A stretch of 64,000 nucleotides of DNA, taken from Escherichia coli. Its GTDB lineage: Bacteria > Pseudomonadota > Gammaproteobacteria > Enterobacterales > Enterobacteriaceae. The translations under genes were made by a program, and so were the position numbers. The notes below the pieces were generated by a model. That model saw only the letters and a list, made by a program, of their open reading frames with translations. It did not search any database and was not told the origin of the DNA. The stretch lies in assembly GCF_003334315.1 (NCBI RefSeq), contig NZ_QOWR01000011.1. One strand, given 5' to 3'. The first letter of the stretch is position 1. Every line of letters starts with the position of its first letter. This document shows positions 23,021 to 39,305 of the stretch, piece by piece.

Positions 23021-24667
23021 TCAGGATTTTTTCTTCTCGCGGCTATGCAGGCCACGTTTTTCCAGACCACGGTAAATCAGCTGCTGCTGAATAATGGTTA
23101 CCAGGTTGCTGACGATATAGTACAGCACCAGACCTGACGGGAACCACAGGAAGAACACGGTGAAGATGACCGGCATAAAGGTCATGATCTTCTGCTGCAT
23201 CGGGTCGGTCACTGTGGTCGGCGACATCTTCTGAATGAAGAACATCGTTACGCCCATCAGGATCGGCAGGATGTAGTACGGGTCCTGTGCCGACAGGTCG
23301 TGGATCCACAGTGCAAACGGTGCCTGACGCAGTTCAACGGAACCCATCAGCATGTAGTACAACGCCAGGAAGATTGGCATCTGGATCAGCAGCGGGAAGC
23401 AGCCGCCCAGCGGGTTAACCTTCTCAGCTTTGTACAGCGCCATCATTTCCTGGCTGATACGCTGTTTGTCATCGCCCAGACGCTCACGCATTGCCTGAAT
23501 CTTCGGCTGCAACATACGCATCTTCGCCATGGAGGTGTACTGCGCTTTGGTCAGCGGGTACATGATGCCACGAACGATAAAGGTGATGATGATAATGGAG
23601 AAGCCCCAGTTACCCACAAAGCTATGGATCCATTTCAGCAGTTTGAACAGCGGCTGAGAGATGAACCACAACCAACCGTAATCAACGGTCAGATCCAGGT
23701 GCGGAGCAACAGCTGCCATTTTGTCCTGGATTTCCGGGCCAACCCACAGGGTGCTGTTCATCGCGCCAGTCTGACCAGGCTGAACCAATACCGGCTGAGA
23801 TTTATAGCCGATAGCGGCGATGCCGTTACCCAGATTAGCGGTATAGAAGTTGTTGGTACCGTCGTTATGCGGGATCCACGCCGTCGCGAAATACTGTTGC
23901 AGCATCGCCACCCAACCACCTTTCGAAGAGATGTTCAGGTTTTCGTTATCGGCAATGGTATCGAACTTGTATTTCTCATACTTCTCGTCAGGCGTGGAGT
24001 ACGCCGCGCCACGGAAGGTGTGCAGTGCGAAGTTGCTGCTTCCGGTATCGAGATGCGGTGGCAGAGTGATGGATTGCTTCAACTGACCAAACGAGGAGAT
24101 TTCCAGCGGTTTCTCGCCAGCGTTCTGCACGTTGTAGTTGACGTTGACAGCGTAATCACCACGTTTCAGGACAAACGTTTTGGTAAACGTGTTGCCTGCC
24201 GCGTCGGTATACGTCATCGGCACCTGCAGTTCGTTTTGACCTTCAGCCAGCACATAAGCGTCTTTTTCAACGTTATACAGCGGACGCGGGCCGTTAGCCG
24301 GGTTATCCGGGCCATCACGACCGGTCAGACCGCTCTGTGCCTGATAAATAAACTGCGGTGAAGTTTCCAACAGCTGGAACGGCTGGGTAGAGTTCAGCTC
24401 TTTCGGGTAAGCAGGCAGCAGAGCTTGCTCAACATCACCACCACGGGTGTTGATGGTCAGATCAAGCACGTCGGTCTTAACCGAGATCAGTTTCCCCTGG
24501 CCACTGGCCGGTACGCCCTGGTCGGCGGCGCTACCCGCTGCGGTGGTCGTTGTCTGCGTGGTCTGTTGGGCCTGAGGTTGCGGGTTTTTATCCTGCTCCC
24601 AGGCTTGCCAGATCATGAAAGACACGAACAGCAAAGCGATGACTAAAAGATTGCGTTGCGAATCCAT
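23021..24667 (-). CDS. yidC: Membrane protein insertase YidC
   Basis: 548-aa ORF; N-terminal TM, large periplasmic domain, conserved C-terminal 5-TM core. Confidence 0.93.
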
Positions 24668-33648: not shown

Positions 33649-34305
33649 TTATTGGTTTACTGCATATACAACCAGAAATTGCAGCGGTGCAGTAATGATG
33701 TCCAGCGTAACAGTCACTGGCAGTAATGCTGCGGAAACACCATCCGGAATGCCTCTGGGTGAATAGTATTCATAAAATCGCACTTTAAATGGATGGTAGA
33801 ACGCCATCACCTTTGAGTAATCCATGTTTTTATTTTTCTCATGGATTGTGCCTTTTAGGTTTTCCAGTGACCTGGTACAGTGTTGAACACCACAGGCAAA
33901 ACCATAATGCGTTGCCAGTGCCTTTTCTTCTTCGTTATTCCAGTAGTAGTAAAGCGATATTGTGCCGGTAAATTTCTTTTTCCCCGCATTTAAAACAAAT
34001 CTTGCGTCATCGGCAACCTGAATATTGTGCCGGTTAAGTGCTGGATCATTGAGCATCTTAACGATGTCATCGGCACCATCAGTGATAAGGTAATCCAGCG
34101 ATTCCCCTACAAAAACATAGCCTTTTGTTCCATTACTATCTTTTGCCTGCGATAGCCCAGTGATGGTGTCTGACTGCGATTGATACTTTCCTGAACTACC
34201 CTTTGCGGTATGGGAAACCAGAGCATACGAGATACAGCCTGAAAGCATCAGCGCCAGTGGGAATAAACCGGCAGCCTTAAAAAATCCCTTAAAATTCAAC
34301 TTCAT
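33649..34305 (-). CDS. yidX: Putative lipoprotein YidX
   Basis: 218 aa from internal Met with lipoprotein signal peptide [24 protein letters not shown] (lipobox LSGC). Confidence 0.75.
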
Positions 34306-34442
34306 GATTAATCCTTTAAACGAGTAGCTAAGCCGTTGAAAGCATACTCTTCTTTCCCTCCTGTTTAGCGCCTGATATCCCTTTTCAGATTTCTGCCCGA
34401 CGCATGTCATTTTTTTATGCATTGTTCTTTTTGTGATCTAAA

Positions 34443-34519
34443 TTGTAGTACAACAATATAAGTTTGTACTACATTACACGCACGGCAAACGCGAACGTCA
34501 TCACGCTGGTACTACAAAG
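34443..34519. promoter_or_regulatory. DgoR operator repeats in the dgo promoter
   Basis: Three copies of the GntR-type half-palindrome: ttgTAGTACAac (34443-34453), tgTACTACAt (34465-34473), gGTACTACAaag (34507-34519). Confidence 0.6.
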
Positions 34520-34582
34520 TTGCCGCGTTATGCATCGATCGGGGTAAAGTAGAGAAGAACATACAGAGCACAAGGACTCTCC

Positions 34583-35272
34583 ATGACTCTCAATAAAACC
34601 GATCGCATTGTCATTACGCTGGGTAAACAGATCGTTCACGGCAAATACGTGCCAGGCTCGCCGCTTCCGGCTGAGGCGGAACTCTGTGAGGAGTTTGCAA
34701 CCTCGCGCAACATCATCCGTGAGGTGTTCCGTTCGCTGATGGCGAAGCGGCTGATTGAAATGAAACGTTATCGCGGGGCGTTTGTGGCACCGCGTAACCA
34801 GTGGAATTACCTCGACACTGACGTACTGCAATGGGTGCTGGAAAATGACTACGACCCACGGCTTATCAGTGCCATGAGCGAAGTGCGAAATCTGGTGGAA
34901 CCGGCGATTGCCCGTTGGGCAGCAGAGCGCGCGACTTCCAGCGATCTGGCGCAGATTGAATCGGCGCTGAACGAGATGATTGCCAACAATCAGGACCGCG
35001 AAGCGTTTAACGAAGCGGATATTCGCTACCACGAGGCGGTGCTGCAGTCGGTGCATAACCCGGTGTTACAGCAACTTAGCATTGCGATCAGTTCGCTGCA
35101 GCGGGCGGTTTTTGAACGAACCTGGATGGGCGATGAGGCCAACATGCCGCAAACGCTCCAGGAACATAAGGCGCTGTTCGATGCGATACGACATCAGGAC
35201 GGCGATGCGGCAGAGCAGGCGGCGCTTACCATGATCGCCAGCTCGACACGAAGGTTAAAGGAAATCACATGA
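34583..35272 (+). CDS. dgoR: GntR/FadR-family repressor of the galactonate operon
   Basis: 229-aa ORF with N-terminal winged-HTH and FadR-type C-terminal domain. Confidence 0.9.
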   Translation: MTLNKTDRIVITLGKQIVHGKYVPGSPLPAEAELCEEFATSRNIIREVFRSLMAKRLIEMKRYRGAFVAPRNQWNYLDTDVLQWVLENDYDPRLISAMSEVRNLVEPAIARWAAERATSSDLAQIESALNEMIANNQDREAFNEADIRYHEAVLQSVHNPVLQQLSIAISSLQRAVFERTWMGDEANMPQTLQEHKALFDAIRHQDGDAAEQAALTMIASSTRRLKEIT

Positions 35273-38012: not shown

Positions 38013-39305
38013 ATGGATATCCCCGTTAATGCAGCAAAGCCGGGGCGTCGGCGTTATCTGACGCTGGTGATGATCTTTATTACGGTGGTCATTTGTTATG
38101 TTGACCGCGCTAACCTGGCCGTGGCTTCCGCCCATATTCAGGAAGAGTTCGGCATTACGAAAGCGGAAATGGGCTATGTATTTTCGGCCTTCGCCTGGCT
38201 TTATACGCTATGCCAGATCCCCGGCGGTTGGTTTTTAGATCGCGTAGGTTCTCGCGTGACTTATTTTATTGCGATATTTGGTTGGTCAGTGGCGACTTTA
38301 TTCCAGGGCTTTGCCACGGGATTAATGTCATTAATTGGTCTGCGTGCGATAACCGGTATTTTCGAAGCGCCCGCTTTCCCGACCAATAACCGGATGGTGA
38401 CCAGCTGGTTCCCGGAACATGAACGCGCTTCCGCCGTTGGTTTTTATACGTCTGGTCAGTTTGTCGGTCTGGCGTTTTTGACTCCGCTGCTGATCTGGAT
38501 TCAGGAGATGTTGAGCTGGCACTGGGTGTTCATTGTCACTGGTGGTATCGGCATTATCTGGTCGCTGATTTGGTTTAAGGTTTATCAGCCGCCGCGCCTG
38601 ACCAAAGGTATCAGCAAAGCTGAACTGGATTACATTCGTGATGGCGGCGGTCTGGTGGATGGTGATGCGCCGGTGAAAAAAGAGGCACGTCAGCCGTTAA
38701 CAGCCAAAGACTGGAAGCTGGTGTTCCATCGTAAACTGATCGGCGTTTATCTTGGGCAATTTGCGGTGGCTTCTACACTGTGGTTTTTCTTAACCTGGTT
38801 CCCGAACTATTTAACCCAGGAAAAAGGAATCACGGCGCTGAAAGCAGGCTTTATGACCACGGTGCCATTCCTCGCGGCGTTTGTCGGCGTCCTGCTCTCT
38901 GGCTGGGTCGCGGATCTGCTGGTACGTAAGGGCTTTTCACTGGGCTTTGCGCGTAAAACGCCGATTATCTGCGGCTTGCTGATCTCCACCTGCATTATGG
39001 GCGCTAACTACACTAACGATCCGATGATGATTATGTGCCTGATGGCGCTGGCATTCTTCGGTAACGGTTTTGCTTCGATTACCTGGTCGCTGGTCTCTTC
39101 TCTGGCACCGATGCGCCTGATTGGTTTAACCGGCGGCGTGTTTAACTTCGCCGGTGGTCTGGGCGGCATCACCGTTCCGCTGGTGGTGGGGTACCTGGCG
39201 CAGGGTTACGGTTTCGCACCTGCACTGGTTTATATCTCCGCCGTCGCGTTGATTGGCGCGCTCTCTTACATCCTGCTGGTGGGCGATGTGAAGCGCGTTG
39301 GCTAA
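38013..39305 (+). CDS. dgoT: D-galactonate:H+ symporter (MFS, anion:cation symporter family)
   Basis: 430 aa from internal Met ([22 protein letters not shown]...); the ORF-track start 37968 is an extension. Confidence 0.88.

Follow-up and report, generated by a model that had tools for sequence, protein, structure and literature searches.

The regulatory region upstream of dgoR in Escherichia coli raises the question of how many operators its repressor uses, given two repeats that are proven operators and a third of the same form further downstream. The window analyzed here, by which we mean the whole stretch of 64,000 nucleotides, is E. coli K-12 DNA, and the 301 bases around the repeats are 100% identical to BW25113. 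RefSeq annotation gives yidX on the minus strand followed by dgoR-dgoK-dgoA-dgoD-dgoT. The yidX–dgoR intergenic region (34306-34582, 277 bp) contains all three repeats, and dgoR is the first gene of the dgoRKADT operon, which ends at 39305. The gene that the region precedes is listed below.

34583 to 35272, plus strand: dgoR, encoding a GntR/FadR-family repressor of 229 aa, with its ATG at 34583 (ORF list and RefSeq annotation)

The dgoR product joins an N-terminal GntR winged-helix domain (Pfam PF00392, E 7e-14) to a C-terminal FCD domain (Pfam PF07729, E 3e-27), the composition of a FadR-subfamily regulator, and it aligns from end to end (residues 1-229) with DgoR of PDB 7C7E (E 3.7e-149). 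NCBIfam confirms dgoA as an aldolase, dgoD as galactonate dehydratase and dgoT as the galactonate transporter. On the other side of the region, the ORF list makes yidX 257 aa long (33649-34422, minus strand) and carries it into the regulatory DNA. RefSeq yidX has 218 aa and stops at window position 34305, so the longer frame is no evidence for coding under the CRP site described further below.

Inspection of the intergenic region reveals that all three repeats share the general form of an 11-bp dyad, TTGTA-N-TACAA, in which the half-sites TTGTA and TACAA are arranged round one central base.

34443 to 34453, no strand assigned: IR1 (O1), TTGTAGTACAA, a perfect dyad TTGTA-G-TACAA that starts at -140 from the dgoR ATG
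34464 to 34474, no strand assigned: IR2 (O2), TTGTACTACAT, TTGTA-C-TACAT with one mismatch, starting at -119 from the ATG
34507 to 34517, no strand assigned: site 3 (putative O3), TGGTACTACAA, TGGTA-C-TACAA with one mismatch (position 2), starting at -76

The second and third repeats had initially been recorded as TGTACTACA at 34465-34473 and TGGTACTACAAAG at 34507-34519. Each copy is a near-perfect dyad by itself, and it is solely the difference in the central base (G versus C) that makes copy 1 the reverse complement of the other two. FadR-subfamily operators are palindromes with TKGT-N3-ACMA boxes, and DgoR has been put in the class with a 3-nt spacer (PMC4494728). The GT-N3-AC core of such operators is present in TTGTAGTACAA, TTGTACTACAT and TGGTACTACAA, and the sole departure of IR2 from TKGT-N3-ACMA is its last base (T for A). 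An 11-mer inverted repeat with half-sites TTGTA and TACAA is taken to bind one DgoR dimer (PMC11705089). All three copies are thus whole operators of the FadR type, with one dimer to each, and the initial annotation, which had rightly recognized FadR-subfamily GntR-type motifs, was mistaken in calling them half-sites.

Four matches to TTGTANTACAA with at most one mismatch occur in the 64-kb window against 1.78 expected, which places the overall motif count at chance level. Three of the four are the dgo sites, which fall within 75 bp; the remaining one (23352) is found within the coding sequence of yidC. A triple within 75 bp arose in 0 of 300 Markov-simulated windows, and its Poisson expectation is 2.6e-6 per 64-kb window and 2e-4 per genome. 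The presence of three repeats upstream of dgoR, at 34443, 34464/34465 and 34507, is accordingly confirmed and is far from chance. Motifs of 9 to 11 bp with one mismatch do arise by chance, as the match at 23352 illustrates. It is nonetheless exceedingly improbable that the dgo triple is itself a chance cluster, or that a local duplication left it behind as a neutral relic whose third copy is devoid of function, given the expectation above and given that the position of the third copy is held in 77 of 79 species despite flanking spacers that are only ~56% conserved. The shuffles and the Poisson estimate reject chance clustering, and the conservation refutes the relic reading.

The match in yidC (23021-24667, minus strand) was inspected in its own right. 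It reads ATGTAGTACAA at 23352-23362, a DgoR dyad with one mismatch, and two weaker 9-mers (23116 and 23272) lie less than 250 bp from it, also inside yidC.

The first two copies in the window are the published IR1 and IR2, which are experimentally established operators for the same repressor and effector in the same DNA, with the same overlap of the CRP site and the -10 element (PMC11705089, PMC12288454, PMC6003448). The published IR1 oligonucleotide CTAAATTGTAGTACAACAATAT corresponds to window positions 34438-34459, and IR2 is described with one mismatch (PMC11705089). Both inverted repeats are credited to Singh et al. (2019, J Bacteriol), as relayed by PMC11705089 and PMC12288454. Electrophoretic mobility shift assays (EMSA) used 55-nt oligonucleotides described as covering the two inverted repeats, IR1 and IR2 (PMC11705089; PMC12288454), and one of these papers plots a Hill coefficient for its IR1+IR2 probe (PMC12288454). 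Sort-Seq located a repressor signal at -140 to -110 that is lost in a dgoR deletion and in D-galactonate (Belliveau 2018, PMC6003448), and DNA-affinity chromatography with mass spectrometry enriches DgoR on dgo promoter DNA (PMC6003448). It is practically certain that IR1 and IR2 are DgoR operators. Autorepression of dgoRKADT by DgoR, which the initial annotation had suggested, is established (PMC11705089; PMC6003448). The attribution of all three motifs to DgoR fared unevenly: IR1 and IR2 have it from EMSA, Sort-Seq and DNA-affinity mass spectrometry, and copy 3 from a computational prediction (PMC4494728).

A stringent consensus promoter and terminator scan of 34250-34650 found nothing. Since P1 and the downstream promoter are both weak or activator-dependent, promoter positions were taken from Belliveau 2018 (PMC6003448) and not from the scan. 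The elements of P1 are the following.

34432 to 34447, no strand assigned: CRP class II site TGTGA-N6-TTGTA, with TGTGA at 34432-34436 and its right half common to IR1 (PMC6003448)
34470 to 34475, plus strand: -10 hexamer TACATT of P1, the D-galactonate-inducible, CRP-dependent promoter, which PMC6003448 places at -120 to -100

Class II activation by CRP is reported with TGTGA at -160 to -140 (PMC6003448). From the position of the -10 hexamer and a CRP center at 34439.5 (~-41.5), the P1 start would fall at ~34481 ± 2. The left half of IR1 and the right half of the CRP site overlap, IR1 covers the P1 -35 region and IR2 overlaps the -10 hexamer, so that both operators overlap the core promoter when its elements are taken from PMC6003448. 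When D-galactonate is lacking, DgoR on IR1 and IR2 covers parts of the CRP site, the -35 and the -10 and thereby shuts out CRP and RNA polymerase, a repression of P1 that covers the whole operon, dgoR included. D-galactonate bound to the FCD domain frees DgoR from DNA.

The published dgo model has two sites, and copy 3 stands outside it. The triple arrangement is nevertheless already known, because it appears in a published computational prediction: in their 2015 supplement, Suvorova, Korostelev and Gelfand predict three DgoR sites for E. coli b4479, with CACGCTGGTACTACAAAGTTG in third place, and three sites each in E. fergusonii, Enterobacter 638, Cronobacter, Klebsiella, Shigella, Salmonella and Serratia (PMC4494728). 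Their prediction is entirely in silico; it assigns the sites neither a position nor a role and does not rank them by affinity. A full-text search of main texts for TGGTACTACAA returned no match, the string being present solely in the PMC4494728 supplement. No report of DgoR binding to site 3, or of a regulatory effect of site 3, was found in the literature searched, outside which Singh et al. 2019 lies. The experimental groups name two inverted repeats only. Belliveau 2018 describes a repressor signal solely at -140 to -110 and none at -76 to -66 (PMC6003448), and the preprint text of that study holds nothing further on a downstream DgoR site. The Reg-Seq paper sees reason to believe that the dgoR promoter is without undiscovered sites, and it names a 'DgoR (right site)' that could be either IR2 or site 3 (PMC7567609). 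The dgo regulatory region is therefore ordinary and known, with two proven operators and all three sites predicted in 2015. What is added here is the never-perfect pattern of site 3, its helical phasing and its relation to the downstream promoter.

Conservation was assessed with dgoR loci from 80 Enterobacterales species (protein identity 79 to 99%), of which 79 were usable. Because these species share ancestry and may exchange the dgo locus by recombination, the counts that follow are not independent events. Per-column identity across the 79 species is 0.99 for IR1, 0.95 for IR2 and 0.915 for site 3, as against 0.56 to 0.59 for the spacers, and the left half of the CRP site is conserved at 0.98. 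The islands of conservation are the CRP half-site with IR1, IR2, site 3, a GGTAAAGTAG block and the ribosome-binding site. All three dyads are thus conserved both in sequence and in position upstream of orthologous dgoR. IR1 is perfect in 73/79 species, IR2 has at least one mismatch in 78/79, and a dyad with at most two mismatches stands at the site 3 position in 77/79. Alleles within E. coli that are only 94% identical leave each of the three dyads untouched and differ in the spacers.

Several loci depart from this picture and are recorded as separate observations. The locus L056 (CACSKA010000004.1, labelled Chryseobacterium sp. 18061) has a dgoR with 90% protein identity to that of E. coli and has IR1 and IR2 arranged as in enterobacteria; its assembly probably bears a wrong label or is contaminated, and the locus is one of two without a recognizable site 3. 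In E. coli 2018-05-2CC (NZ_AP027877.1, our L084), dgoRKADT is wholly absent: a short 3' remnant of dgoT stands between yidX and cbrA, and the window is matched up to ~34400. In about 400 of 5,426 complete E. coli genomes, no place covers 80% or more of the 301-bp query from the regulatory region. Shigella flexneri SF3769 (DgoR_SFL) has TTGTAGCGCAA as its IR1 equivalent, with two core changes in one half-site (PMC4494728); its IR2 and site 3 are intact, and it could be a natural operator-down variant.

The distances between the dyads are as constant as the dyads themselves. IR1 and IR2 lie 21 bp apart from center to center in 79/79 species, IR2 and site 3 lie 43 bp apart in 70/79 (42 to 44 in the others), and the distance from IR1 to site 3 is 64 bp. 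Spacings of 21, 43 and 64 bp approximate 2, 4 and 6 helical turns, which puts all dyads on one face of the DNA. The phasing of 21 and 43 bp is compatible with cooperativity, which had been part of the initial proposal for autoregulation, and proves nothing; no cooperativity among three DgoR sites is reported in the literature found.

Site 3 differs from its two neighbors in the way it departs from the dyad. The perfect form, with T at position 2 and A at position 8, occurs in 0/79 species. A mismatch at position 8 (TTGTACTGCAA or TTGTACTTCAA) is carried by 61/79 species and a mismatch at position 2 by 16/79 (TAGTACTACAA, or TGGTACTACAA in Escherichia); both positions are mismatched in the remaining 2/79. 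Both mismatch states are found within each of Raoultella, Phytobacter and Enterobacter. Parsimony on a neighbor-joining tree counts 7 to 9 changes between the position-2 and position-8 states, with several at either position, a figure to be read as a hint only given the roughness of the tree and possible recombination. To judge from these alignments, a relic accounts for the pattern less well than does selection for a weak DgoR site.

The placement of site 3 relative to the promoters bears on what such a weak site might do. Its center would lie at ~+31 from the P1 start estimated above, with a span of about +26 to +36 inside a 5' leader of ~100 nt. The initial annotation had held that repeats downstream of the transcription start and without regulatory effect would speak against its proposal; the third copy does occupy a downstream position. 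In this leader, the conserved block could conceivably act in RNA, as a structured or protein-binding element, and the presence of a second conserved block 27 nt downstream of site 3 is in keeping with that idea. We regard an RNA role as very improbable, however. RNAalifold on 34 species returned 0 conserved pairs, Rfam gave no match at E <= 1, and the fold of the single sequence does not surpass those of its shuffled versions (z = -0.75). The block is, moreover, a DNA dyad of the same form as two proven protein-binding sites. An RNA element in the 5' leader is rejected by RNAalifold, Rfam and the fold z-score.

Site 3 also adjoins a second RNA polymerase site, reported at -30 to -70 and visible in glucose, that is, with DgoR present (PMC6003448). 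We tentatively read its promoter elements from the sequence as follows.

34520 to 34550, plus strand: P2, a weak downstream RNA polymerase site with a -35-like TTGCCG at 34520-34525, a 19-bp spacer and a -10-like TAAAGT at 34545-34550

The assignment of these hexamers to the reported -30 to -70 site is our own, and it is held to be tentative because the -35-like hexamer is poorly conserved except at TG, the spacer is 19 bp and the stringent scan was empty. The -10-like TAAAGT sits within the GGTAAAGTAG block (34542-34551), which is ~0.95 conserved across Enterobacterales, and its distance from site 3 is 27 bp in 77/79 species. The edge of site 3 lies 2 bp before the -35-like hexamer, and site 3 as a whole (-76 to -66) touches the upstream edge of the -30 to -70 region. 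A DgoR dimer on site 3 would be centered at ~-45 from the putative P2 start, near 34557, and would reach into the -35.

A further element was noted just upstream of site 3, where a semi-conserved TCACG forms part of a weak CRP-like cGcGA-N6-TCACg (34490-34505). Its center lies at ~-60 from the putative P2 start, a class I position; its left half is not conserved, and the element may mean nothing.

The proximity of site 3 to P2 also lends itself to another account, in which only IR1 and IR2 are functional and the third block is kept for the downstream promoter, where RNA polymerase would make an upstream or -35-proximal contact, or for some other factor, its likeness to a DgoR site being inherited and disused. 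We consider this account, the one serious rival, unlikely. The experimental groups' descriptions, with their two inverted repeats, agree with it, as does the assignment of -30 to -70 to RNA polymerase with no repressor signal reported there (PMC6003448), a region whose edge site 3 touches. The downstream polymerase site is active in glucose while DgoR is present (PMC6003448), and one half-site of site 3 carries a core mismatch in most species. A contact for polymerase would not, however, explain why the conserved columns of site 3 coincide with the motif positions T.GTACT.CAA of the dyad and show no -35 or UP-element pattern, nor why the spacing from IR2 is held at about four helical turns. 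A disused dyad is also hard to uphold because the one-mismatch dyad is maintained: where A is restored at position 8, position 2 is lost, and the reverse.

The best explanation as a whole, to which we give a probability of roughly three in four, is that DgoR uses IR1 and IR2 as its operators and site 3 as a weak auxiliary operator. Under this reading of two main operators and one auxiliary, one DgoR dimer would occupy each 11-bp dyad (TTGTA-N-TACAA), and IR1 and IR2 would switch the inducible promoter P1. Site 3 would be a conserved and deliberately sub-optimal auxiliary operator that lies in helical register with IR1 and IR2. It probably binds DgoR in vivo. Most likely, it would cap basal dgoR transcription from P2 once DgoR has accumulated, and it may also strengthen repression of P1, acting as a roadblock or contacting the dimers bound upstream; for each of these two specific roles, the odds are at best about even. 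The affinity of site 3 may be very low, because the core AC of one half-site is mismatched in 61/79 species. The reporters of Belliveau 2018 were carried on plasmids at 5 to 10 copies (PMC6003448), and one may speculate that such copy numbers could leave a weak site 3 unfilled.

The constancy of the mismatch suggests a more specific possibility, which we put at somewhat less than an even chance. Exactly one mismatch is present at site 3 in 77/79 species, and it moves between positions 2 and 8. Site 3 might accordingly be a third operator kept sub-optimal by stabilizing selection, a set-point device through which repressor homeostasis is decoupled from induction. It would stand at ~+31 from the inducible promoter and next to the -35 of a weak, constitutive one. 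A trickle of dgoR transcription would then go on until the level of DgoR suffices to fill the weak site.

Comparison with related and better-known repressors helps to place this arrangement. LldR, another member of the GntR/FadR family, likewise has operators upstream and downstream of the start (O1 and O2 of E. coli lldPRD); work cited in PMC8689689 holds that the spacing and angular orientation of the LldR operators matter and proposes a DNA loop. The two LldR operators flank the promoter at a larger distance, whereas dgo has two dyads on the promoter and a third 43 bp further on. A loop over 43 bp at dgo would be improbable unless the DNA were strongly bent, and the dimer is the only form in which DgoR has been described. 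NanR, also of the GntR/FadR family, resembles DgoR in being a sugar-acid repressor with three repeated elements (GGTATA) at one promoter, the nan operator. Horne et al. 2021 reportedly found cooperative binding of NanR at this operator. The NanR repeats are contiguous direct hexamers that make up one composite operator, in contrast to the three separate dyads of DgoR at distances of 21 and 43 bp. In the LacI and GalR systems, a strong operator at the promoter is backed by weaker conserved auxiliary sites (O2 and O3 of LacI, OI of GalR), among which one stands downstream of the start. Site 3 of dgo, as proposed here, would follow this logic. LacI and GalR depend on tetramerization or HU-assisted looping, while no higher-order oligomer of DgoR is documented.

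Use of D-galactonate and loss of repression by DgoR are recurrent targets of selection during E. coli colonization of the mouse gut (PMC7064181), and quantitative models of bacterial regulation use the dgo promoter as a 'gold standard' (PMC7567609). A functional site 3 would, if true, be a modest refinement of a well-understood system and not a new kind of element. The quantitative dgo models use two DgoR sites; if site 3 is functional, these models, and biosensor designs with them, omit one input.
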